A stretch of DNA of 38,028 nucleotides from Elusimicrobiota bacterium (GTDB taxonomy: Bacteria > Elusimicrobiota > Elusimicrobia > UBA1565 > JACRDR01). The notes beneath the pieces were generated by a model, which ran no database searches, had not been told where the DNA came from, and was given only the letters and a program-made list of their open reading frames with translations. Numbering within the stretch: position 1 is the first letter of the stretch; each line of letters starts with the position of its first letter. Shown piece after piece: positions 1-12,439 of the stretch. Made by a program: the position numbers and the translations under genes. Location: contig JACQPK010000402.1 in NCBI GenBank assembly GCA_016207565.1, forward strand, positions 1-38,028, written 5' to 3'.

Positions 1-1218
<1,218 letters not shown>

Positions 1219-1228
1219 CGGATTCGCT

Positions 1229-1275
1229 AGTATAGCAAAGGCGAGCTTGACAAGCCTGCGGGCCGTTGCTAAGAA
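1229..1275. promoter_or_regulatory. Divergent sigma70-type promoters for secA and the 1282 ORF
   Basis: Minus strand: TG-c-TATACT (1234-1229), 10 nt before the secA ATG. Plus strand: TTGACA (1247-1252)-N17-TAAGAA (1270-1275) with extended TG, 6 nt before ATG 1282. Confidence 0.6.
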
Positions 1276-1281
1276 AGGACC

Positions 1282-1821
1282 ATGATGACGCTATTTGCGC
1301 TCCTCGCGGGCGCCGCGCTCGCCGCCGACACCACCGCCGCCAAGCCCGCGCAGGAGATGACGGCCGTCTTCGAGCTGTCGGTCCATATCCTGAAGCAAGG
1401 AGACGTGCAGAAGGTCTACGAGAGCATCGTCCGGCGCCTGAGCGACGCCGGGGGCGTGCAGGCCCTCACGGGCCGCCCGGACATGATCGCGTTCTCCTTC
1501 GGGCGGGGCCGGGTCCCCGAGCTCCGCAAGCGTCTCGAGAAGGGCCTCGCCTCGGTCGCCTCGGTCGGCCTCATGCGAGGCAAGGCCGAGAAGCTCGCCC
1601 CGACGTTCGAGGAGCGGCGGGCGCAGGCCCAGAGCGAGATCAAGCTCCTGAACGCCGAGCGCGAGAAGATCTCGGAGGCGCTCGCCAAGGCCCCCCTGAT
1701 CGACGCCTACGTCAAAGAACAGCTCCGGCAGCTCGGTTCGATCGACCCAGCGAAGGAGGAGCGGCAAGGCATCCTGCTCGTGATCGTCGACGGCGCCGAC
1801 CCGCCGGGCCCGCTCAAGTAG
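1282..1821 (+). CDS. Exported hypothetical protein with a coiled-coil-like middle (weak DUF4349-like resemblance)
   Basis: Signal peptide [15 protein letters not shown], high GC3 codon usage and an upstream promoter. Confidence 0.7.
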
Positions 1822-1827
1822 CTCGCC

Positions 1828-1856
1828 TTGACAAAGGCCGGCGCCGCTGTTACCCT
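1828..1856 (+). promoter_or_regulatory. Sigma70-type promoter of the pilin gene
   Basis: TTGACA (1828-1833)-N17-TACCCT (1851-1856) with extended TG. ATG follows 10 nt later with no SD. Confidence 0.7.
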
Positions 1857-1866
1857 GACGGCGTCG

Positions 1867-2367
1867 ATGAAACGTCGTCCTACCGGTTTCACCCTAATCG
1901 AGCTGCTGGTCGTGTGCCTCATCATCGGGATCCTCGCGACGATGGGTCTCAGCCAGTACGCCAAGAGCGTCGAGACCGCCAAAGCCGACGACGCCTTCGC
2001 CTTCACGCAGAGCATCGCGGCCGCCAACCGCATGTACGCCCTCGACCATGGCGGCCGCTACCTCACGGGCACGCTGACCGTCGCCGACTGCCCGACGGGC
2101 GCCGCCGACGACTGCCGGACCAACACGAGCGCGTGCAGCCTGATGTGGTGCGGCTATCTCGCCCGGCAGGACCTCATGCCGAAGCCCTACACCTTCTGCG
2201 CCGGCGACGCCGCCACCGAGTGCGGGGCCGCTTGCGACGCGACGATGGTGGCTTGCTCCCTCCGCAAGTCGCCCGCCTCCACGCCCTACAGCACGTGGGG
2301 GTATACCGTCACCCGGCAGGGGGTCTCCACCGCCTCGGACCCCTCGAATATGCCGGCCGTTCAATAA
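1867..2367 (+). CDS. Type IV pilin (prepilin N-terminal cleavage/methylation domain) with Cys-rich head
   Basis: MKRRPTG|FTLIELLVVCLIIGILATMGLSQYAKSVETAK is a class III signal with Glu5. The globular part has 8 Cys. Confidence 0.92.
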   Translation: MKRRPTGFTLIELLVVCLIIGILATMGLSQYAKSVETAKADDAFAFTQSIAAANRMYALDHGGRYLTGTLTVADCPTGAADDCRTNTSACSLMWCGYLARQDLMPKPYTFCAGDAATECGAACDATMVACSLRKSPASTPYSTWGYTVTRQGVSTASDPSNMPAVQ

Positions 2368-2400
2368 GCTGTAACTTTTTCGCCTCCGCCGTCTATAGGT
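2368..2400 (+). promoter_or_regulatory. ECF-sigma-type promoter, copy 1 (upstream of the Hint protein gene)
   Basis: GCTGTAACTTTTT-N10-GTCTATAGGT, with a near-identical copy at 4205-4237. The -35 AAC and -10 GTC/GAC pattern is typical of ECF promoters. Confidence 0.75.
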
Positions 2401-2434
2401 TGGTGGAAGGCAGGCGCAGGAAGGAGAAAAGTCA

Positions 2435-3544
2435 ATGAAAATAAAGACATTGCTGAGCGCCATCGGGCTCATGTTCGGTCTTTATGGGGTCGCGGCCGCC
2501 CAACTGAGAGGCTCCGCGAGCATCACGGTGCAGGAGTCGAGCGCGCTGGGGCCCACGGGGTGCAACGTCTGCGGCAACGGGTGTTCCCCGGGCAACATGC
2601 GGTCGACGGGCGGCTGGGCCTATGTCTCGCCGTCTGCGTCGGCCGATCCGCGGTGGCCGATCACCGGCATCACCGTCCAGCAGCGCTTCGGCGGTTACGG
2701 CCGCTCCTACGCTTCCTGGGAGACCCAGAACGGCAACTACCAGCAGAGGGCGCTTCCCGACGGCGATGGCTCGCCTTGGCGCGCGGAGCTCTATCGCAAC
2801 ATCAGCAGCTCGTACTGGTGGGGGTATTACCAGTACCGGGCGGTCTGCACCAACGCGGGGGGCAACCTCATCAGCTCGGACGTCTGGGAGAACATCGTCT
2901 CCTGCTTCCTCAAGGGCACGCCGATCCTGATGGCGGACGGGACCTATAAGAAGATCGAGGAGATTCAGATCGGCGACCAGGTGCTCTCCTACGATACCGA
3001 GAATAAGAAGTTCATCCCCAGCGGCGTCGTCAACACCGTGCAGGCCGTCTCGGAGAAGTACTACGTCGTCAACGGCGAGCTGAAGATCACTCCGGCCCAC
3101 CAGCTCTACGTCAACGGCGGCTGGCTCAACTCCGAGTACATGAAGGTCGGCGACACGCTGCTCGGCGAGGATGGACAGCCCGTCACGATCACGTCGCTCG
3201 TGGAGGTCACCGAGACCGTGCCCGTGTACAACCTGATCACCCAAGCGCCGCACGACTTCTTCGCGTCGGGCTTCCTGGTGCACAACATCAACCCGGGCGC
3301 GGAGCACAAGGACCACGGGTTCGGCAAGGGCACGAAGATCGCGCTCGCGGACGGCCGGGTCGTGCCGATCGAAGAGGTCAAGGTCGGAGACAAAGTCGTC
3401 TCCTACGACACCCAGAAAGGGCGCTACACGATCTCCAAGGTCTTGGGCGCCGGCTCGCAGACGGCGAAGAAGACCAAGCTGATCAACGGCACGCTCCGGG
3501 TCGGGGCGAAACAGCCGATGTTCGGCATCGCGAAAGGAAAGTAA
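2435..3544 (+). CDS. Secreted protein: signal peptide, beta-rich N-domain, intact Hint (BIL/intein-like) domain and degenerate N-terminal half-Hint
   Basis: SD AAGGAG and a Sec signal. Hint1 spans aa157-284: CFLKGTPILMADG...TPAH...VYNL...FFASGFLVHN. A second copy at aa295-369 starts GFGKGTKIALADG and stops just after the block B region. Confidence 0.92.
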   Translation: MKIKTLLSAIGLMFGLYGVAAAQLRGSASITVQESSALGPTGCNVCGNGCSPGNMRSTGGWAYVSPSASADPRWPITGITVQQRFGGYGRSYASWETQNGNYQQRALPDGDGSPWRAELYRNISSSYWWGYYQYRAVCTNAGGNLISSDVWENIVSCFLKGTPILMADGTYKKIEEIQIGDQVLSYDTENKKFIPSGVVNTVQAVSEKYYVVNGELKITPAHQLYVNGGWLNSEYMKVGDTLLGEDGQPVTITSLVEVTETVPVYNLITQAPHDFFASGFLVHNINPGAEHKDHGFGKGTKIALADGRVVPIEEVKVGDKVVSYDTQKGRYTISKVLGAGSQTAKKTKLINGTLRVGAKQPMFGIAKGK

Positions 3545-3573
3545 CGTAGCCGAACGAGATCCTTCCGTGAAAC

Positions 3574-3605
3574 AGGGGCAGGTCCTCCCACGAGGACCTG
3601 CCCCT
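3574..3605. terminator. Perfect 14-bp stem-loop without U-tract between the Hint gene and the ECF sigma gene
   Basis: AGGGGCAGGTCCTC-ccac-GAGGACCTGCCCCT. Confidence 0.5.
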
Positions 3606-3614
3606 CGCGTCTCG

Positions 3615-4211
3615 ATGGAAGCGGGCCCCCGAGAGCACGACGAAGACGTCCGCCTGGTTCGCGCCGCCCAGAAGGGCGACGCCGACGCCTTCCGCCGGCT
3701 CATCGAGCGCCACCAAGACCCGGTCTTCGACCTTTGCCTGCGAATGCTCGGCAACCCGCAGGACGCCGAGGACGCCGCCCAAGACACCTTTCTCGCTTTT
3801 TTCCGGCACCTCCGGTCCTACCGGGAGGACCACAAGCTCTCCAACTGGCTCTACACGATCGCGCTCAACCGCTGCCGCCGGCTCTTGCGCAAGCGAAAGC
3901 TGCTCCGGCTGCTGTCGCTCGACTTCTCTTGGGGAGACGAGAACGAGCCCGCCGCGCTCGAAGCCCCGTCCGAGGAGAAGCTCCCGGAGGCCGGCCTCGA
4001 GCAGGCGGAGGCCGAGCGGTGGGCCGCGAAAGTCCTGGCGAGCCTGCCCCCCACCCTCCGCGAGCCGTTCCTTTTGCGCCACGTGAAGAAGATGCACTAC
4101 GAGGAGATCGCGGCCGCGATGAAACTGTCGCTCGCCAACGTCAAGGTCCGCCTCCACCGGGCGAAGCTCTTCCTGCTGAAGCGCTTCGGACCCGGCCCCT
4201 CCGGGCTGTAA
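3615..4211 (+). CDS. ECF-subfamily RNA polymerase sigma factor (alternative start GTG 3567)
   Basis: Region 2: GDADAFRRLIERHQ...DAEDAAQDTFL...LSNWLYTIALNRC. Region 4: LASLPPTLREPFLLRHVKKMHYEEIA...NVKVRLHRAK. Confidence 0.95.
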   Translation: MEAGPREHDEDVRLVRAAQKGDADAFRRLIERHQDPVFDLCLRMLGNPQDAEDAAQDTFLAFFRHLRSYREDHKLSNWLYTIALNRCRRLLRKRKLLRLLSLDFSWGDENEPAALEAPSEEKLPEAGLEQAEAERWAAKVLASLPPTLREPFLLRHVKKMHYEEIAAAMKLSLANVKVRLHRAKLFLLKRFGPGPSGL

Positions 4212-4237
4212 CTTTTTGGGGATTTCGGACTATAGGT
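4205..4237 (+). promoter_or_regulatory. ECF-sigma-type promoter, copy 2 (overlaps the sigma stop codon, upstream of the anti-sigma candidate)
   Basis: GCTGTAACTTTTT-N10-GACTATAGGT, with the same spacing as 2368-2400. Confidence 0.72.
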
Positions 4238-4253
4238 ATCTAGAAGCGACGCC

Positions 4254-4733
4254 ATGGACAGCGGAAAGATAAGTAAGAACAAGGATTTCTTGCTGGCGCT
4301 CGAGCGGTTGTTCGACGGCGCTCGGCCCCATCCCGCGCCGACGCATTTCGCGGACCGGGTCTTGGACCGATGGCGCGAGGAGCCGTCGTGGACGATGGCC
4401 ATGCCCGCGGCGGTCGTCATGGCCTGCGCCACGCTGGCGCTCTTCTTCGCCCTGGGCCGCGCACCGCAGGCGCAGCCGCAGATTCTCGCCTTCGGGTTCG
4501 ACCGGGAATCGATCCCACTCTACCAGCCGGTCACCCTGCGCTGGAAGGTGGCGCACGTCACGCGGGTCCAGATCAAGGTCACGGCGGACGGGGCCATCCT
4601 CAAGGATATGCCGGTGGCTCGGCCGGTGGAATCCGGCGAGCTGACCATGAGCATGAGCCTTCCCGGCCGCTACGGCTTCGAGCTCATCGCCCACACCCCG
4701 CACGGCGCCATCACCCACCGGTTAGGCCGTTAG
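4254..4733 (+). CDS. Putative single-pass anti-sigma factor with an extracytoplasmic Ig/PKD-like domain
   Basis: Lies directly after the ECF gene. It has a short N-domain with APTHFADRVL, a TM segment (MPAAVVMACATLALFFAL) and a beta-rich PQILAF...VTLRWKV...VQI...YGFELIA tail. Confidence 0.72.
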   Translation: MDSGKISKNKDFLLALERLFDGARPHPAPTHFADRVLDRWREEPSWTMAMPAAVVMACATLALFFALGRAPQAQPQILAFGFDRESIPLYQPVTLRWKVAHVTRVQIKVTADGAILKDMPVARPVESGELTMSMSLPGRYGFELIAHTPHGAITHRLGR

Positions 4734-4739
4734 GCGGCA

Positions 4740-4768
4740 TTGACACCCCGTCGGGGGGCTGTTATATT
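4740..4768 (+). promoter_or_regulatory. Sigma70-type promoter of the fibre/minor pilin operon
   Basis: TTGACA (4740-4745)-N17-TATATT (4763-4768) with extended TG. Confidence 0.75.
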
Positions 4769-4797
4769 TCAGATAGCGCTTGCGAGGGCCGTCCAAC

Positions 4798-5205
4798 ATG
4801 GTCACGCATGAGATCACCCTTTCGTTCACCGTCACCCCTTCCCGCGTCCGCCTGGTCCTGGCGGCGGCGCTTTTAGCCGTATTTCCCCAGGCCTCCTCCA
4901 CCCAGGACGTGTCGACCATGGAGCTGTACTACCCGCCCCCCATCACCGCGGTCGACCAGCTCTACGCCGCCGGCACGACCGTGTTGGCCCGGGATTTCGG
5001 CAACGTCTTTCTCGGGCCGGCCAACGCGGGAGGCACCCATCCGCCCGCCTTCGTCGCGATCGCCCCAGCGAACTCGAGCCCGGCTTTGGCCGCGAACCGC
5101 GACATAGGCATCTTGGTTAACGGCACGATGCGGGTCGACGGCTGCATCAGCCTCAAGAACGCCGGCGCGGGCAACGAGAATCTATGGCGGTGCAAATTCC
5201 GATGA
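4798..5205 (+). CDS. Exported fibre-like protein, paralogue 1
   Basis: EITLSF..PSR plus a hydrophobic segment, then YYPPP, TVLARDFGNV and ILVNGTMRVDGCI...WRC. ATGA overlap with the next gene. Confidence 0.75.
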   Translation: MVTHEITLSFTVTPSRVRLVLAAALLAVFPQASSTQDVSTMELYYPPPITAVDQLYAAGTTVLARDFGNVFLGPANAGGTHPPAFVAIAPANSSPALAANRDIGILVNGTMRVDGCISLKNAGAGNENLWRCKFR

Positions 5206-5675
5206 ACAAGAAGGTGCACGAGCTGACGCTCGAGCTGAGGCTCGCGCCCCGGCCTCGCTGGGCCGTCGTCGCGCTGGTGGCCCTGTGCTTGGCGCTGCCG
5301 CCCAACGCGGGAACGGGCGAGAACTGGGGCACGACCGGGCCGGACGGAGGCGCCAACTACCATCCCGTGCCCTCGGGAGTGGTCACCCAGCTTACGGTGA
5401 CCGGCAACTCCGCGCAGGCGGCGTGGCCGGGGAATCCCGTCACCGAGATCGGCTACCAGCCGACGGTCGTGCTGGGACGCGGCGGAACGGGAACGGACAG
5501 CCTGAACCCGCAGACCGTGGTCCTCAATCCCGGCGGCGCGTTCTTCACGGGCATCGGCTTCCCGGCCGCCGGGACGACCGTGCCCACGCAGCACCTCCAC
5601 GTGCGCGGCCACGTGAAAGTCGCCCAGTGCATCTGGATCGGCAGCTCGGCACGCTGCGCGGGCGACTGGCAGTAG
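5202..5675 (+). CDS. Exported fibre-like protein, paralogue 2
   Basis: ELTLELRLAPR plus a hydrophobic segment, then YHPVPSG, TVVLGR and GIGF...LHVRGHVKVAQCIWIGSSARCAGDW. Confidence 0.75.
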   Translation: MNKKVHELTLELRLAPRPRWAVVALVALCLALPPNAGTGENWGTTGPDGGANYHPVPSGVVTQLTVTGNSAQAAWPGNPVTEIGYQPTVVLGRGGTGTDSLNPQTVVLNPGGAFFTGIGFPAAGTTVPTQHLHVRGHVKVAQCIWIGSSARCAGDWQ

Positions 5676-5683
5676 GGGCCTCC

Positions 5684-6874
5684 ATGGAGCGCGAATTCCG
5701 CCTCCGCCTCCGCCTCCCCCGCTCGACCGCTCAGGCCACGCTCGTCGCCGCTCTCCTCGCCTGGCCGGGCTCGGTGCTTTGTCCGGTGCAGCAGACCGCC
5801 GTCATGGTCGGCTACCTCGCGGACGAGGCCCGCCCGGTGACGACGAACTTCCTGGCTTCGAACCAAAAGACCGTGCTCGGCGCGAGCGGCCACGTCATCA
5901 TGGTCCCGGGAGACTGCTACCCGGCCCGGAACACGACCGTTTACGGCTGCGGGGCGGCGCCGGGCAGCCCCAACCCGACCACCTGCGGCACCCGAGTCAC
6001 GGCCAGCCCGCTCAAAATGCCCGCCTCGGGCGGAGCCGACTACAACAATTCCGGCACGGGCAGCCCGAGCTGCTACAACCCCGCGTGCAACAGCGGCAGC
6101 ACCTGCACCGCCAACAGCGCGGTGCCGCTCCGGCGCGTCTACGCGGTGAACCGGGCGAAGCCGGTGTCTCAGGCCGACGTCGGCAGCCCGGACATCCTGC
6201 GCGTCGACGGCGACATCCGCGTCAACCGCCTCTGCTTCTGGGACGAATGCCGGACGGATTGGCCCTTCGAGTTCCAAGACTGCTCCGTCGGCGGCTGCAC
6301 CCCCGAAAACTCCGACTGCATGCCGGACGGGACGCCGCCGCCCGCGTGCCAGACGAGCGGTACGCGGGGACAGATCCGGACGGTCACCTACAACTGGTCG
6401 ATCCCCGGCTCGACCGCGGCCGCCGGGGTCGATAGCCCGTGGGTGTTCCGGTTCGGGATCGTGGGGAACAACGCCGGCGTGACCGGCGGCGACAGCTGCA
6501 CCGGCTCGCCGGTCGGCTGCGAGATCGGTTTTCCCCTCCCCCAGTCGAGCCCGCCGGCGGGCTACAGCTACCCGTCCGTGACCTCGGGCAGCCGACCCGA
6601 CTCGAAGGCCGCCGAGCCGTCGACGTGGCAGCTCAACACGACCATGACCGTCAACCAGGGCTCCGGGGCCGTGACGCTCACGATCCGCTGCCGCATCTGG
6701 TATCCGCCGTCGGAGTTCAGCCAGACGAAAGGCAAGTGCGAGATCATCATCCCGATCCAGACCGTCGCGCAGTCGGTGAACACCTACAACTTCTCGCCCA
6801 CGTCGTTCTGCCAGGAGCGCTACCTCACGAGCGACGAGCGCTACGCGGCCTGTCCGGTGGTGGTGGCCCCGTGA
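5684..6874 (+). CDS. Exported Cys-rich fibre/adhesin-like protein, paralogue 3, with a C-terminal beta-rich head
   Basis: EFRLRLRLPR plus a hydrophobic segment, then KTVLGASGHV and ILRVDGDIRVNRLCFWDECRTDWP. About 19 Cys. GTGA overlap with the next gene. Confidence 0.78.
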   Translation: MEREFRLRLRLPRSTAQATLVAALLAWPGSVLCPVQQTAVMVGYLADEARPVTTNFLASNQKTVLGASGHVIMVPGDCYPARNTTVYGCGAAPGSPNPTTCGTRVTASPLKMPASGGADYNNSGTGSPSCYNPACNSGSTCTANSAVPLRRVYAVNRAKPVSQADVGSPDILRVDGDIRVNRLCFWDECRTDWPFEFQDCSVGGCTPENSDCMPDGTPPPACQTSGTRGQIRTVTYNWSIPGSTAAAGVDSPWVFRFGIVGNNAGVTGGDSCTGSPVGCEIGFPLPQSSPPAGYSYPSVTSGSRPDSKAAEPSTWQLNTTMTVNQGSGAVTLTIRCRIWYPPSEFSQTKGKCEIIIPIQTVAQSVNTYNFSPTSFCQERYLTSDERYAACPVVVAP

Positions 6875-7374
6875 GCCGCCGGCGGCGACGGAACGGATTC
6901 ACGCTCATCGAGATCTGCGTTGCCGCGCTCTTGATCGCGATCGGCGCGACGGCGCTGTTCGCGGTCGCGCTGTCGACGCGGAGAACGGTCGCGGTAAGCC
7001 CGCTCCGCGAGCAGATGAACCAGTACGCGCGGCTGCTGTCGGAGAGCCTCAAGGGCTACGTCACGGCGTGCCTCCCGGGCGCCGTGTCCACCGCCTGCCC
7101 GGCGTCGATCACCGACGCCGCCCGCAACGCGGGCGCGCCGCACGGCACGTGGGCCCTCAGCAAGCCCGACGGGACGGACTGCGGGACCGACGGCTACAAC
7201 TGGGCCCTCGACGCGGCGGACGCCGACAATCCCCACGACGCCTCCTGCTTTCTTCCCGCCGAGCTGACGTCGGCGCCTCCGGACGGCGCCAACGCGACCC
7301 TCAAGTACACGGTGGCGGTCGCCGACGGCGCCCGGAAGTTCGAGATCATCATGGCGTGGGAGGAGCCGGACTGA
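6871..7374 (+). CDS. Minor pilin/pseudopilin, PilV/GspI-like
   Basis: GTG start coupled to the upstream stop. MSRRRRRNG|FTLIEICVAALLIAIG; C-terminal FEIIMAWEEP strand. Confidence 0.85.
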   Translation: MSRRRRRNGFTLIEICVAALLIAIGATALFAVALSTRRTVAVSPLREQMNQYARLLSESLKGYVTACLPGAVSTACPASITDAARNAGAPHGTWALSKPDGTDCGTDGYNWALDAADADNPHDASCFLPAELTSAPPDGANATLKYTVAVADGARKFEIIMAWEEPD

Positions 7375-8174
7375 TGGCCTCTCCGGCTCTCGCTTCCGAA
7401 GAGGGCTTCTCCATGATCGAGCTCATGGTGGTCGTCATGCTGATGGCGGTCATCATGCTCGGGCTCTTCTCGCTGCAGGACGCGCTGCTCCAGCAGCGAG
7501 GCCGCATCCTCCGCAACGTCGCCGTGCGCAACCAGAACGATCTCGCGCGGCGGACCATGCTGCGCGAGCTCGCCTCGGCGACGGTGGTCCTCGAGCCGCA
7601 GACCGGGATGGCGAGCGACAACATCGTCGGCTGGAAGAACCTCGATCCCTCCACGATCATCTGCTGCGGCGCCACGACCTACTCGTGCATCTCGTGCGTG
7701 CCGAGCGCGACGAACCTCCGGACGAACGCCCCGAACCCCGCGACGTGCACCTGCGGGAACCTGGGAACCGAGCCGGCCCGGGCGCTGTCGACCACGGGCG
7801 CGGGCGACGAGGCCCTGATCCAGTGGTTCCGGTTCTGCTTTGACGACACGGTCGCCGACGACGCCAACCGGACGCCGCGCATCGTCTATTACAGCGGCAC
7901 GGGATTCAATGCAGGGGGCGTCTTGCCGGCCGACGCGACCGAGATCTGCGGCGATGGCGACGCGGCCCAGCCGATCGGGGGGTTCGACGGAGTCTCGATC
8001 GCGAAGACCGGAGCAAGCCTCTTCAGCCGTCCGCGCCACAACTGGGTCGATATCAATTTTTCCGCGTTCGTCGAGCGGCCCGTTCCGTCCACGGGGCAGG
8101 TCGAGACGGCCAAGGCCGAGACGCATGTCGGAGTCACGCTGATGACCGGCAACATCGCGTCGGCGAGGTGGTGA
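7374..8174 (+). CDS. Minor pilin/pseudopilin, PilW/GspJ-like
   Basis: TGATG coupling. EEG|FSMIELMVVVMLMAVIMLG followed by a long helix ending MLRELASA. Confidence 0.85.
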   Translation: MASPALASEEGFSMIELMVVVMLMAVIMLGLFSLQDALLQQRGRILRNVAVRNQNDLARRTMLRELASATVVLEPQTGMASDNIVGWKNLDPSTIICCGATTYSCISCVPSATNLRTNAPNPATCTCGNLGTEPARALSTTGAGDEALIQWFRFCFDDTVADDANRTPRIVYYSGTGFNAGGVLPADATEICGDGDAAQPIGGFDGVSIAKTGASLFSRPRHNWVDINFSAFVERPVPSTGQVETAKAETHVGVTLMTGNIASARW

Positions 8175-8599
8175 TGCGAAGCGAGCGCGGCGTGGTCCTG
8201 GTGCACGTCATGATCCTCATCACGCTCATGGCGTGGCTCGCGTCCATGTTCCTCAGCTCCGTGCTTTCCCGTCAGATCAACGCCAAGCAAAGCATGAAGA
8301 GCTCCGAGGTCCGCGCCGCGATGAACGCGGCGGCGGCCCGGATCACGAGCTGCCTCGCGAGCGTGGGGTTTCCCGTGGGAACCACGTGCGCCAGCGCCCT
8401 GCCGGTCTCGCAGGAGGCCGCCTTCCAGGCCTGCCACGGCGGCACTTCGCCCACGGAGTTCACCATCGCCGACACCGACAGCCTCGCGGTGCGGCCCGTC
8501 ACCTTCGCCATCTGCGCCACGCCCGCGAACCCGCCCTGCCGGTTTCGCATCAACGTTTGCGAGCCGGGGGACACCTGCCCGGCGCCGACCTGCCCTTAA
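8174..8599 (+). CDS. Minor pilin/pseudopilin, PilX/GspK-like
   Basis: TGATG coupling. MRSERG|VVLVHVMILITLM lacks Glu5, the PilX/GspK hallmark. Cys-rich. Confidence 0.8.
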   Translation: MRSERGVVLVHVMILITLMAWLASMFLSSVLSRQINAKQSMKSSEVRAAMNAAAARITSCLASVGFPVGTTCASALPVSQEAAFQACHGGTSPTEFTIADTDSLAVRPVTFAICATPANPPCRFRINVCEPGDTCPAPTCP

Positions 8600-8627
8600 A
8601 CAATCTAGGACCATGGTCCTAGATTGT
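8600..8627. repeat. 28-bp perfect spacerless palindrome
   Basis: ACAATCTAGGACCATGGTCCTAGATTGT. Confidence 0.95.
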
Positions 8628-8652
8628 CCACCGGTGGATAAGCTGTGGATAA
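8624..8652. promoter_or_regulatory. Cluster of three DnaA-box-like 9-mers
   Basis: TTGTCCACC (8624-8632), GGTGGATAA (8633-8641) and a perfect TGTGGATAA (8644-8652), followed by an AT-rich tract. Confidence 0.6.
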
Positions 8653-8674
8653 CCCGAATACCCTATATTTTTAC

Positions 8675-10027
8675 TTATTTTTCTAGCGCCGCCAACAGCT
8701 CGCGCGCGAACTCACCCAGCGACGGGTCGCGGGCGCCCATGGTCAAGACGACGTCTCCCGAGCGGGCCTCGGCGGCCACCTGCGCCGGGATCTCCGCGCG
8801 GCGCTCGACGAACCGGGCGTCCTTGCCCCGGGCGCGGACGGGGTCGGCTAGGTCCTTCGACGAGATCGTCTTCTGCGCGGTGCCGCCGGCGTAGTAGATC
8901 TCCGGCAGCCACAGCACATCCCCGGACCGCAGGGCCGCCGCGAACGCGTCGATGAACTCCTGGCGGTTGAACCTAGTCGGGGCGTAGCCGTGAGGCTGAA
9001 AGATCGCGAGGACGCGCGGGGCCTGAAGCCTCGCGGTCTCGATCGCGGCGCGGACCTTGGCGGGGTTGTGCGCGAAGTCGTCGATGACGGCCACGCCCCG
9101 CGCGGCGCCGACGCGCTCGAAGCGGCGGGCGACGCCCTGAAACGCCTCGAGCGCGCGGGCGCAGGAGGCCAGCTCGGCGCCGGCCTCCAGCGCCGCGGCG
9201 GTGGCCGCCACGGCGTTCTCGACGTTGTGGCGCCCGGGGACCGGCAGGCGGAACTCGACGCCGGAGACCCGAAACCGCGAGCCGTCCGCCTCGAGCCGGA
9301 CGTCCTCGGCGCGCACCTGCGCGTCGTCGCCAAGCCCGAACGTGCGCGCGCCTTCCGCGAGCCCCTCGATGCCCGGAGAGCCCGCGTGCGAGACGAAACG
9401 CCCGCAGCGGGACTTGAACTCGGAGAACATCCTCACGAGCTCCGGGATCTCCTTGTGGTCCTTGTCGACGTTGAGCAGCACGCCGATCGCCGGCGCGTAC
9501 CGGACGAGGGTGCCGTCGGACTCGTCCGCCTCGATCACGAGCAAGTCGGAGCCGCCGCGCCGGGCGTTGCCGATGAGCCCCTGCGACTCGAGCGCGCGCA
9601 GGCCCCCGCCCGTGATGACGGACGGGTCCCGGCCGGCCGCGAGCAGGATCTCGTAGACCATGGCCGCCACCGTCGACTTGCCGCTGGTGCCGGCGACCGC
9701 GACCGCGCGCCGCTCGGCGACGTAGCGCGCGAGCATGTCGGCGCGGTGGATGACCGGGATGCCGAGCCCGCGCGCGGCCTCGAGGTCGGGATTGTCGGTC
9801 TCGATCGCCGTCGAGGCGATCACGGCGTCGGGCCGGGCGCGGACGCCGGACCCGTCCTGCGGCACGATGCGCACGCCCTGGGCCTCGAGCTTGGCCCGAA
9901 TCCCCGCCGCGAGCCCCCGGTCGAAGCTGCGGTCGGAGCCGGTCGCCGCTCCGCCGCCCATCGCGTGGAACTGCGCCAACGCGCTCATGCCGCTGCCCGC
10001 GATGCCCGCGTAATGGAGAGTTTTCAC
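8675..10027 (-). CDS. Mur ligase, MurC/Mpl-like (UDP-N-acetylmuramate-amino acid ligase)
   Basis: GIAGSGMSALA, GSD, AVAGTSGKST, EADESDG, DH, FQGVARRF, DDFAHNP and FQPH motifs. GTG 10027 is preferred over ATG 10045. Confidence 0.92.
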   Translation of the reverse strand: MKTLHYAGIAGSGMSALAQFHAMGGGAATGSDRSFDRGLAAGIRAKLEAQGVRIVPQDGSGVRARPDAVIASTAIETDNPDLEAARGLGIPVIHRADMLARYVAERRAVAVAGTSGKSTVAAMVYEILLAAGRDPSVITGGGLRALESQGLIGNARRGGSDLLVIEADESDGTLVRYAPAIGVLLNVDKDHKEIPELVRMFSEFKSRCGRFVSHAGSPGIEGLAEGARTFGLGDDAQVRAEDVRLEADGSRFRVSGVEFRLPVPGRHNVENAVAATAAALEAGAELASCARALEAFQGVARRFERVGAARGVAVIDDFAHNPAKVRAAIETARLQAPRVLAIFQPHGYAPTRFNRQEFIDAFAAALRSGDVLWLPEIYYAGGTAQKTISSKDLADPVRARGKDARFVERRAEIPAQVAAEARSGDVVLTMGARDPSLGEFARELLAALEK

Positions 10028-10061: not shown

Positions 10062-11057
10062 GTGCCGAGCCGCGCCGCCGTCCTCGCCCTGGCCGTCGCT
10101 CTTTCGGGCTGCTCGCCGGTCTACGTCTTCAAGGCGTGGCGCGGCCACGCCCGGCTGTTGTCGAGCCGCCGGCCCATCGAGCGGGTGCTCGCCGACCCCG
10201 CCACGCCGGAGCCCCTGCGCGAGAAGCTGCGCGTCGTGCTCGACGCCCGCCGATTCGCCTTCGAGACGGTCGGCATCCCGCCGACCGACAACTACACGGA
10301 GTACGCCGCGGTGAAAGGCCCGGCGGTGACGTGGGTGGTCAGCGCCTCGAGGCGGACGCGCTTCGAGGCGAAGCGCTGGTGGTTCCCGTTCGTCGGCCGC
10401 GTGCCCTACAAGGGCCACTTCGAGCGCTCCGACGCCGAGGCCGAGCGGGCCGCGCTCGAACGCGACGACTGGGACGCCGCCTGCGGCGGGGTGTCCGCCT
10501 ACAGCACGCTCCGCTGGCTGCGCGACCCCGTGCTCTCGACGATGCTCGAGAGCGGGCCCGGCGAGACCGCGGAGCTGCTCCTCCACGAGCTCAGCCACGC
10601 CGCGGTGTTCTTCAAGGGCCAGGTCGACTTCAACGAGGCCTTCGCGACCTACGTCGGCGAGACCGCCGGCGCCGAGTTCCTCGCCTCCCGCTTCGGCACC
10701 GAGTCCGCCGAGCTCGCCGAGTACCGCCGCGCGCTGGGGGAGCGCGCCGCGAAGGCGAAGACGGTCGACGCGCTCTACGATGAGCTCGCCGCGCTCTACG
10801 GAGGGCCGGGCTCGGACGCCGAGAAGCTGGAGGCGCGCAAGAAGGTGTTCGAGCGCTACCGCGAGCCGCTCGGCCTGGCGACGCTCAACAACGCCGTCGT
10901 CTTGGCCCACCGGCGCTACCGCTACGACCTCTCGGACTTCGCGACCGCCCGCCGGAGGACCGGCGGCGACTGGCGGAAGTGGCTCGCGGAAATGAAGTCC
11001 CTCGACCCCAAGGACCCGCGTGCGGACCTCAAACGCCGGCTGGCGACCCCGGGCTAG
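10062..11057 (+). CDS. Lipoprotein, putative zinc aminopeptidase (Aminopep/DUF2265-like)
   Basis: Lipobox LSGC, WWFPFVGRVPYKG, AYSTL.W..DP, HELSH (HExxH) and FNEAFATYV. Confidence 0.88.
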   Translation: MPSRAAVLALAVALSGCSPVYVFKAWRGHARLLSSRRPIERVLADPATPEPLREKLRVVLDARRFAFETVGIPPTDNYTEYAAVKGPAVTWVVSASRRTRFEAKRWWFPFVGRVPYKGHFERSDAEAERAALERDDWDAACGGVSAYSTLRWLRDPVLSTMLESGPGETAELLLHELSHAAVFFKGQVDFNEAFATYVGETAGAEFLASRFGTESAELAEYRRALGERAAKAKTVDALYDELAALYGGPGSDAEKLEARKKVFERYREPLGLATLNNAVVLAHRRYRYDLSDFATARRRTGGDWRKWLAEMKSLDPKDPRADLKRRLATPG

Positions 11058-11458
11058 GCGGTCCGCCGCAACGCGTCGTAGAGTTGCCGTGGGGCGAGGA
11101 TTTCCGTTTCATGGTAGCGCTTGACGACGAGGAGGTCCCGGTCCCCGGTCACCAAGCAGTCCGCCCGCGATGCCGCGGCGATGCCTAGTATCGGCAGGTC
11201 CTTCGGATCCCGGCATGCATCGGAAGGCACCGGGACCGGGCGCTCGACGGTGCAATGCGACTCGAGGTAGGCCCGGATCTCGGATACGGTGGCGGCGGGA
11301 ACCTTCAGCTTCCGCCCAAGCTTCCGATCGACCTCGTCTAGGATGTGCGTGCCGACGATGACCTCGTGCCTCCGCACGCACACTTCGAAAAGGGCCTGGC
11401 ACAAGCCTTGGGTGGCGAACGCGGCAATGAGGACGTTCGTGTCGAACACGACGCGCAT
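11054..11458 (-). CDS. PIN-domain toxin of a putative toxin-antitoxin pair
   Basis: MRVVFDTNVLIAA...E...CRDPKDLPIL...ADCLVTGDRDLL. Start is coupled to the antitoxin stop. Confidence 0.93.
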   Translation of the reverse strand: MRVVFDTNVLIAAFATQGLCQALFEVCVRRHEVIVGTHILDEVDRKLGRKLKVPAATVSEIRAYLESHCTVERPVPVPSDACRDPKDLPILGIAAASRADCLVTGDRDLLVVKRYHETEILAPRQLYDALRRTA

Positions 11459-11673
11459 CAGAGCTTCTTGAAGACGTCCTCGTCCGTTAGGAGGCTTTGA
11501 GATTCGGCGAACGGCAGGACTTTTCCGCGGAGCCGCCGGAAGCGCCGGACCGCGACGTATTCCCGGAGCGACTCGCGCACTAGGCTGCTGAAGGGAATAT
11601 TCTCCTCGCGGCTCAGCGCCATCAGGTCCTCTCGTAGATCGTCCGGAAGGCGGATATTCAGCACGCGATTCAT
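11458..11673 (-). CDS. Ribbon-helix-helix (CopG-like) antitoxin, 71 aa
   Basis: MNRVLNIRLPDDLREDL...SSLVRESLREY...LLTDEDVF; SD AGGAG. Confidence 0.88.
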   Translation of the reverse strand: MNRVLNIRLPDDLREDLMALSREENIPFSSLVRESLREYVAVRRFRRLRGKVLPFAESQSLLTDEDVFKKL

Positions 11674-11695
11674 GATCGGCTCCTGTGTGACGGCC

Positions 11696-11732
11696 TGTAA
11701 TACATTGTAACACGACGGCGACCGCCCGTCAA
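11696..11732 (-). promoter_or_regulatory. TA operon promoter with probable autorepression operator
   Basis: Minus strand TTGACG-N17-TACAAT. The -10/TSS overlaps TGTAATACATTGTAACA, a near-palindrome with repeated TGTAA. Confidence 0.65.
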
Positions 11733-11761
11733 GGCCCGGCGGCTTATGATATAGTCGTCCG

Positions 11762-12439
11762 GTGGCCGAAGAGCTCTTCAACCTGAGCCACGAGTACGAC
11801 CGAATGCTCCAGCAGGGGCTCGCGCTGTCCGGCGAGTCGAAGGAGTTCTTCGTCGCCGGGCGGGTCCGGCACTTGAAGGCGACTATGCCCGCCGGGTTCT
11901 CGCCCAAGCGGATCCTCGACTTCGGCTGCGGCGTCGGCGGGGCGACCGCGGCGCTGGCCGAGGCGTTTCCCGACGCGGAGGTGGTCGGAGTCGACACGGC
12001 CGAGAACGCGTTGGAGTTTGCTCGAAAGAACGTCACGCGGAAGAATGTCCAGTTCAAAGCCATGGCCGACATCGGCCATAGCTTTGAACTGGCGTATGTC
12101 AACGGGGTCTTCCATCACATCGCGCCGGAGAAGCGCGGGGAGGCCGCGGCGCTCGTGCACGGCGCGCTCTCGCCGGGCGGGCGCTTCGCCTTCTTCGAGA
12201 ACAACCCGTGGAACCCGGGGACGCGCCTGGTCATGGCGAGGATCCCCTTCGATCGCGACGCCATCCCGATCCCGCCTCCGGAAGGCCGCGCGCTGCTCTC
12301 CGGCGCGGGGTTCGCGCTCGAGCCCTCGCGCTTCCTCTTCTTCTTCCCGCGCCCGCTGGCGTGGTTCCGCTTTCTCGAGCCGTCGCTGGAGCGGTGCCCG
12401 CTCGGCGCGCAGTACCACATCCCCGCCGTGAAGGAGTGA
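11762..12439 (+). CDS. Class I SAM-dependent methyltransferase
   Basis: ILDFGCGVG, VGVD, VFHHI, LSPGG, FENNPWNPGT and GAQY motifs. Confidence 0.92.
   Translation: MAEELFNLSHEYDRMLQQGLALSGESKEFFVAGRVRHLKATMPAGFSPKRILDFGCGVGGATAALAEAFPDAEVVGVDTAENALEFARKNVTRKNVQFKAMADIGHSFELAYVNGVFHHIAPEKRGEAAALVHGALSPGGRFAFFENNPWNPGTRLVMARIPFDRDAIPIPPPEGRALLSGAGFALEPSRFLFFFPRPLAWFRFLEPSLERCPLGAQYHIPAVKE

Follow-up and report, generated by a model that had tools for sequence, protein, structure and literature searches.

The window analysed here is the complete 38-kb contig JACQPK010000402.1 (38,028 nucleotides) of a metagenome-assembled Elusimicrobiota genome (4.9 Mb, 519 contigs, 77.5% completeness). The sequencing runs listed as containing it are DNA runs of a single study, with no RNA run among them. 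It carries six genes arranged head to tail between positions 4798 and 8599, with one promoter-like site ahead of them. The first three, here called P1, P2 and P3, encode proteins of what appears to be a previously unnamed family with a long conserved leader, and the last three (V, W and X) encode minor pilins or pilin-like proteins. The features of this operon are listed below.

4740–4768, + strand: sigma-70-like promoter site, TTGACA-17-TATATT with TG before the second hexamer, upstream of P1
4798–5205, + strand: P1, 135 residues; long leader, ELYYPPP, TVLARDFG and LVNGTMRVDGC...WRCKFR; a short family member
5202–5675, + strand: P2, 157 residues; long leader, NYHPVPSG, TVVLGRGG and GIGFP...LHVRGHVKVAQC...RCAGDWQ
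5684–6874, + strand: P3, 396 residues; basic leader MEREFRLRLRLPR, conserved WPGSVLCPVQQTA, ILRVDGDIRVNRLCFWDEC..WP, then a Cys-rich C-terminal half
6871–7374, + strand: PilV-like minor pilin (V), 167 residues; GTG start; prepilin site NGFTLIE
7374–8174, + strand: PilW-like minor pilin (W), 266 residues; prepilin site EGFSMIE
8174–8599, + strand: PilX/GspK-like small pilin-like protein (X), 141 residues; hydrophobic N-terminus; weak family matches only

The six frames are tightly packed. The overlap is 4 bases at P1/P2 and at P3/V and a single base at V/W and at W/X, with 8 bases left between P2 and P3; the ATG of P2 overlaps the stop codon of P1 (ATGA), and the GTG start of the PilV-like gene overlaps the stop codon of P3. 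The GC content at third codon positions is 0.85–0.94 across all six frames. The promoter-like site matches the consensus at 11 of 12 positions (two such sites are found in 1200–9000, with 0.4 expected), and a GAGG lies about 9 bases 5′ of the P1 ATG. Regarding the pilin-like genes, the PilV-like protein matches N_methyl in Pfam (8.1e-6) and TIGR02523 PilV (6.6e-7, under the curated cut-off), and the PilW-like protein matches N_methyl in Pfam (2.8e-4). The PilX-like protein gives weak NCBIfam matches to GspK (0.051) and GspG (0.026).

The first-pass annotation of this stretch had described in P1–P3 an unusual common N-terminus and further shared motifs, a large Cys-rich head confined to P3, close spacing with coupling to the PilV-like gene, and the lack of a prepilin site; these observations hold, and the arrangement recurs as an operon in other genomes. 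The shared N-terminus, E-(I/L/F)-(T/R)-L, reads E5-I-T-L-S-F...P14-S-R16 in P1, E7-L-T-L-E-L...P16-R/P18-R in P2 and E4-F-R-L-R-L...P12-R13 in P3, and in each chain it is followed by a hydrophobic stretch of 12–18 uncharged residues. The Y-x-P-x-P motif, the TV(V)L(A/G)(R/A) motif and the closing block are present as well, and all three are family-wide, corresponding to TTYYPAPxGxY, T.LARDGG and L.V.G...C...C..W, respectively. P3 contains 19 Cys residues, P2 three and P1 two. Neither N_methyl (Pfam) nor the prepilin model TIGR02532 (NCBIfam) matches P1–P3 at E ≤ 1, whereas V and W do match, and the P1–P3 sequences are without a Gly-Phe/Tyr junction; in the class III signals of prepilins, a short leader ends in Gly ahead of a hydrophobic helix with Glu5. 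Likewise, no Pfam family matches them at E ≤ 1, including PF05567, Peptidase_S74 and ESPR, and no NCBIfam family matches them.

The similarity of the three proteins to one another is low. BLASTP aligns P1 with P2 over 74 residues at E=3e-5 and P2 with P3 over 28 residues at only E=0.12, and the comparison of P1 with P3 is not significant. Their kinship becomes clear because relatives bridge this weak pairwise similarity. A hidden Markov model (HMM) of 39 family members from other genomes, containing no window-type sequence, was searched against 48,148 six-frame fragments of the window's own genome and matches P1 at 1.1e-12 and P2 at 2.1e-5, whereas P3, at 0.044, falls below inclusion; a P3-based profile matches P1 at 2.9e-4. 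A tblastn search of the own genome with P1–P3 gave no further paralogues at E ≤ 1e-2. The C-termini divide the proteins into two types: P3-like members have a partly conserved hydrophobic tail, in which CP is followed by VVVAP, DITVSG or TINISG, and P1- and P2-like members end in RC..W.

Across 401 genomes sampled from the window's phylum, the P3-based profile finds matches in 91. These are concentrated in four genome families, with 2/2 genomes in f1, 44/47 in f2, 8/10 in f3 and 34/47 in f5, and there is no match in f4 (0/118) or f16 (0/89). Nearly all matches cover profile positions 1–72, and distant ones keep the N-terminus MRRE-h-x-h-R-h-R-h-x-RP-x-AR with its hydrophobic core, together with the block KLYV.GD....RLCW...WP. 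Large databases hold few close relatives: a search of 5.8 billion sequences returned five proteins for P3, including itself, and large-database searches gave three for P2 and four for P1; the P3 profile has 12 matches among 1.84 billion representatives; and scans of genome-contig and metagenome-contig collections gave one locus each. No NCBIfam model matched eight typical members, and a Pfam scan of one long relative (P0018) and seven typical members gave nothing above noise. In titles and abstract openings of the literature on Elusimicrobia with pilins or tail fibres, or on non-pilin tip proteins, the family is not described. Judged by their sequences, P1–P3 are members of a previously unnamed family specific to the Elusimicrobia.

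To describe this family, 46 members were extracted and aligned, and leader statistics were taken from the 39 of 42 typical members that match the leader pattern (defined leader range, 31–45 residues). The leader has a median length of 36 residues and is built of two parts, an n-region of 18 residues with alternating basic and hydrophobic positions and a net charge of +2, and an uncharged core of 13. P1–P3 agree with these medians, having n-regions of 17–19 residues with a net charge of +1 to +3. Position −1 is occupied by Ser in 32 members, Thr in five, Cys in one and Arg in one, and position −3 by Leu in 35, Ile in three and Gln in one (n=39). The core is followed by L-x-S ahead of a conserved acidic residue. 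The most conserved stretch of the family lies directly behind this predicted cleavage site. After the leader, members have TTYYPAPxGxY, T.LARDGG.VGIGT..P...L.V.G and a variable, usually Cys-rich C-terminal part. P3 was also considered as a lipoprotein on account of its ...SVLC sequence, and this was dropped, since S-V-L-C is incompatible with the lipobox rule.

The long conserved leader is new. Its N-terminal strand had been suggested at first as a dedicated export or assembly tag of the three operon proteins. Instead, the strand is the n-region of a leader found throughout the family in the phylum; it is a family trait, specific neither to the operon nor to pili. In the ESPR leaders of autotransporters, a conserved N-terminal extension precedes an ordinary n-h-c signal, and the family leader resembles these in being two-part. 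However, there is no Pfam ESPR match at E ≤ 1, and the motif, the phylum and the type of passenger differ.

The relation to tail fibres is carried by the typical relatives. Six of the seven relatives scanned match PHROG families at E ≤ 0.01, all six including phrog_9942, 'tail fiber protein' (down to 4.8e-7); typical members match phrog_9942 and phrog_3269. One relative from genome G003 contains a Peptidase_S74 domain, an intramolecular chaperone (1.2e-14, Pfam), and matches many tail-fibre PHROGs. P0018, with 652 residues, has repeated VGIGT..P...L.V.G....C....C...WP units and also matches tail-fibre PHROGs. In the ESM Atlas, P0018 lies closest to phage tail-fibre-like clusters (0.91–0.92) and P2 to viral hypothetical clusters (0.85–0.86), which we treat as leads only. 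The term fibre-like, proposed earlier for P1–P3, is therefore fair for the family; for P1–P3, which have no PHROG match of their own, it would be inherited through family membership. Like phage tail fibres, the relatives have a VGIGTxxPxxxLxVxG-type motif, tail-fibre PHROG matches and, in one case, Peptidase_S74. Unlike tail fibres, P1–P3 are cellular proteins with predicted export leaders, and there is no phage context in the window. Contigs C104, C15, C413, C74, C411 and C139 of the own genome also contain giant open frames of up to 3952 residues, with up to 33 copies of a LARDGG.VGIGT-type shaft motif; the long leader was not seen on them.

The operon is conserved outside the window. In G002, a genome of the window's family, the order is SecA, a pilin, an extracytoplasmic function (ECF) sigma factor, a small membrane protein, P1′, P2′, P3′, V, W and X, and the translations suggest a Hint-domain-like gene downstream; the PilX-like gene thus has a homologue in the same place. 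In the PilV-like gene of G002 (L004:9694-10107) the prepilin N-terminus is not in frame, and a frameshift or an assembly error is possible. G023, from another family of the same taxonomic order, has the same arrangement: Hint, ECF sigma factor, a 155-residue protein, three family genes of 122, 106–121 and 254 residues, two prepilin-like genes recognized by motif pattern, and a 137-residue open reading frame (ORF). A 2.5-kb metagenome contig carries P2, P3 and V together with the first part of W. A tree was built from residues 1–120 of 62 proteins. In it, the P3-like rows form one group (100/98), as do the P1-like rows (99/89), and P1 and P2 lie together on one side of a branch (95/91). The P2-like rows do not form one group, since the G023 copy is placed, with weak support, nearer to P1. 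Where other genomes have tandem copies, these are recent sister pairs. By this phylogeny, P1, P2 and P3 are old, distinct paralogues that have been kept together, which suggests that the three copies are not interchangeable.

Family genes occur beside type IV filament genes much more often than expected by chance. We compared 22 larger loci with 14–38 kb of context, namely the window, G002 and 20 of the best matches of the P3 profile, and type IV pilus genes stand beside a family gene in seven of them. These are the three operons (window, G002 and G023) and loci in G021, G003, G052 and G380. In G021, two prepilin genes are followed by four family genes. In G003 (L054:5380-10182, contig C44), two family genes, one with Peptidase_S74, lie between pilB and pilC, and pilA adjoins pilC. 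G052 and G380 each have a prepilin-like gene in divergent orientation at a distance of about 0.5 kb, recognized in G380 by pattern only. Prepilin motifs number 9–22 per genome in five of these genomes (2.8–5 Mb), so that chance adjacency would amount to about 1% per locus. The G003 contig contains at least eight further prepilin motifs, and a Wzy_C/TPR protein encoded upstream of its pilB could be a hint of pilin glycosylation.

The own genome encodes PilB, PilC, a prepilin peptidase and secretins. Its pilB–pilC gap (C21:6542-8668, − strand) holds a 709-residue open frame that is not a family member; by eye, its sequence suggests a membrane protein of several passes that contains TPR-like repeats. 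The lack of the adhesin PilY1, noted earlier for this cluster, stands for the operon and the window ORFs scanned, in which PF05567 has no match; the genome-wide search, which also returned nothing, is uninformative, since the control genomes are empty too.

Our favoured reading, which we put at a probability of roughly 0.4, is that P1–P3 are Sec-exported fibre-like proteins that serve as a non-pilin tip module together with the minor pilins of their operon. The leader would direct Sec passage with its N-terminus inside and would probably be cut near the L-x-S/acidic junction, after which mature P1–P3 would fold outside the cytoplasm and carry disulphides; the Cys counts fit such a location. 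P1–P3, presumably transcribed and translationally coupled with the PilV/PilW/PilX-like set, would dock as the non-pilin part of the V/W/X priming or tip complex, a role that PilC/PilY1 or MshQ fills in other type IV pili, with P1 and P2 forming short stalk chains and P3 bearing a Cys-rich distal domain. The three chains would associate with each other and serve in adhesion.

The association of P1, P2 and P3 in a heterotrimer, as suggested from the start, was modelled with P1(35-135), P2(38-157) and P3(33-200), P3 being the scored partner. The complex score is 0.38 (runs 0.55, 0.36 and 0.38), compared with 0.02 for the best of three controls, and the verdict is 'weak support'. In calibration, 116 of 157 solved complexes and two of 215 mismatched pairs passed the mark; scores of at most 0.60 account for only 18 of the 157 solved complexes and for both mismatches. 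By the tool's own account, a pass of this kind is wrong in most cases if the pairing was not already likely. At least 37% of the contacts are common to the runs. Partner pLDDT (predicted local distance difference test) values start at 38, and the fold of P3 within the complex is therefore uncertain. A fold search with the P3 monomer model found generic Ig-like sandwiches only, over residues 193–392; the best match (Z 5.9, root-mean-square deviation 3.0 over 97 aligned residues) is below the meaningful level of the tool, and no fold was assigned.

Several results count against a tip module. The 22 loci were chosen as best P3-profile matches, so the sample is biased toward P3-like scores. Fifteen of them have no type IV pilus gene beside the family gene, and all 11 smaller loci, seen with 1.5 kb of flank, lack a prepilin-like gene. 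Since most members examined elsewhere do not stand beside pilin genes, the general role of the family need not involve pili. Six of the 22 larger loci instead have a small ORF and a sizeable radical-SAM gene next to the family gene. The presence of pilus machinery does not discriminate either: PilC/GspF-type genes occur in 374 of the 401 sampled genomes, among them lineages in which the family is missing, and being near-universal they are independent of it. At the protein level, many P3-like leaders have Pro after the likely cleavage point, which makes cleavage there uncertain. P1–P3 have no PHROG match at E ≤ 0.01 and fall into no Pfam or NCBIfam family, and P3 reaches only the E=0.044 given above with the HMM of typical members. 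The AlphaFold2 monomer models are poor (mean pLDDT of 58.7 for P2, in which only residues 1–30 are confident, and 44.8 for P3). The spacing between the shared motifs, about 60, 80 and 128 residues in the three chains, fits poorly with an in-register trimeric shaft. Finally, P1–P3 are linked to V/W/X by gene order, which by itself does not separate the tip module from secreted cargo or from independent fibres.

A more specific form of the tip-module reading holds that the two-part leader and the conserved mature N-terminus target the fibre class to type IV filaments, and that a heterotrimer seated on PilV/W/X by terminal β-strand addition replaces PilY1 as the tip adhesin; a phage-fibre module would then have been recruited to the tip of a pilus. 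According to two reports, which set a precedent for a non-pilin tip module in general, such proteins join PilK/PilX-type pilins in this way, a terminal β-strand completing the sheet (PMC13533445, PMC13711793), and modelling has been proposed for finding unknown tip subunits through β-strand addition to PilX-type pilins (PMC13533445). We regard this form as distinctly unlikely for P1–P3. Proteins that partner minor pilins without being pilins are known already, and so are adhesins built as trimeric fibres; what is new is their combination, together with the leader.

P1–P3 might also be cargo, that is, exoproteins pushed out or released by the tip of a type II-like pseudopilus or by a secreting type IV pilus. 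The conserved mature N-terminus (the YYPxP region) would then be a docking or secretion signal, by analogy with TcpF and CofJ of type IVb pili, which contact the minor pilin through their mature N-terminal segment. In the type II direction, the pilin encoded upstream of the operon at 1828–2367 (N_methyl, 1.5e-7) has GspG as its best match (1e-8, under the cut-off), and V/W/X also give weak GspH/I/J/K matches. The position of the most conserved stretch right behind the predicted cleavage site and the family genes inside the pilB–pilC operon of G003 point the same way, and TcpF and CofJ provide a precedent, being described as operon-encoded, secreted non-pilin proteins that bind a minor pilin (PMC9565799, PMC6048534), although P1–P3 belong to a different pilus class. 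Tail-fibre-like shafts and S74 domains, however, favour anchored fibres over soluble cargo, and pilus genes are absent from the vicinity of most family genes examined; we consider cargo rather improbable. The latter observation, made at 15 larger and 11 smaller loci, instead suits independent trimeric surface fibres, homomeric or heteromeric, that are anchored in the envelope by the N-terminal module and have only their regulation, perhaps through the ECF sigma factor, in common with the minor pilins. Such fibres would resemble the Bdellovibrio MAT proteins, in which a signal peptide and a conserved N-terminal module are followed by tail-fibre-like shafts and variable tips, with S74 in some (PMC10769870). 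The giant proteins of the own genome, in which the VGIGT-type motif recurs up to 33 times, would be in keeping with them. The family is set apart from MAT, by the description of the latter, through its much longer, conserved leader, its presence inside pilus loci and the far shorter P1 and P2. Furthermore, coupling to V/W/X by overlapping codons is kept in three genomes and the metagenome contig, as far as these could be read, and the rarity of pilin genes makes chance adjacency unlikely. On balance, fully independent fibres also seem doubtful.

Alternatively, P1–P3 could be inner-membrane assembly factors with an uncleaved signal anchor, whose cytoplasmic N-terminal strand binds a platform protein, much as the N-terminus of PilN binds PilM. 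The n-region is conserved, basic and strand-like, and the confident part of the AlphaFold2 model of P2 (residues 1–30, pLDDT 79–91) begins extended and turns helical at 18–31; in addition, the Pro behind the junction in P3-like leaders argues against a cut by signal peptidase I. In contrast, the uncharged core is short (median 13), as is typical of a cleaved signal and not of a membrane anchor, L-x-S ahead of a conserved acidic residue agrees with a cleavage site, and the relatives bear tail-fibre shafts and S74 domains. This role appears highly improbable.

If P1–P3 do form a tip module, their closest functional counterparts would be PilC/PilY1 and MshQ. These are likewise non-pilin proteins encoded in one operon with PilV/W/X-type pilins; they are Sec-exported, as predicted for P1–P3, and a seat on the priming complex is proposed for them (PMC13533445, PMC13711793). 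In PilC/PilY1, about ten C-terminal residues supply the strand that completes the PilK/PilX sheet. P1–P3 differ from PilC/PilY1 in that they lack the C-terminal β-propeller domain PF05567, consist of three small chains instead of one large one, and are encoded upstream of the pilins and not downstream. Other alternatives to PilY1 at the tip, in lineages without it, are ComZ and the cyanobacterial PilX with a β-solenoid cap (PMC13759059); these are pilins with an inserted domain, whereas P1–P3 have no pilin N-terminus. Taken as a whole, the interpretation in the first-pass annotation is partly supported.

How type IV pili come by a tip adhesin where PilY1 is missing is not yet settled, and the conserved locus described here provides a concrete candidate from a phylum that has been little studied, belonging to a family outside the current domain libraries. 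If the link to pili is true, tail-fibre modules can serve as pilus tips. If it is false, the family remains a large group of Elusimicrobia surface proteins that lacks annotation, with a long leader in need of explanation.

The genes upstream of the operon in the window are as follows.

1828–2367, + strand: prepilin-type pilin with GFTLIELLVV, possibly the major pilin or a GspG/H-like subunit
2435–3544, + strand: Hint-domain protein, near the operon in all three genomes (window, G002 and G023)
3567–4211, + strand: ECF-type sigma factor, a conserved upstream neighbour, the same in G002 and G023
4254–4733, + strand: putative anti-sigma factor, a single-pass membrane protein of 159 residues, assigned from its position

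The 159-residue membrane protein has no family match in Pfam or NCBIfam, and its counterpart in G023 gives a weak NCBIfam anti-sigma match (E=0.011). The Hint-domain protein has multiple paralogues in the own genome, on contigs C322, C231, C368, C482, C480 and C351. In the rest of the window, the ORFs scanned against Pfam contain housekeeping-type domains or none, with no pilus or phage domain.

Regarding the six radical-SAM loci (L046, L047, L048, L049, L051 and L052, in G358, G336, G022, G178, G360 and G344), the radical-SAM genes encode 483–498 residues with a Fer4_12 domain and lie downstream of the family gene and the small ORF. Where scanned against NCBIfam, the small ORFs match HxsD in three loci, one of them above the cut-off, and HxsB is matched in two loci (2.3e-145 and 2e-151). 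Many family genes at these loci end in MLCC(R/K), and the fibre-like proteins there may be modified by a His-Xaa-Ser system or may replace its precursor. At L047, L049, L051 and L046 (f5), a barnase-type ribonuclease and barstar pair lies directly upstream of the family gene. Within the window, a PIN-domain gene (9.8e-15) is found at 11054–12102 on the − strand with a possible small upstream partner ORF, perhaps forming a toxin–antitoxin pair.

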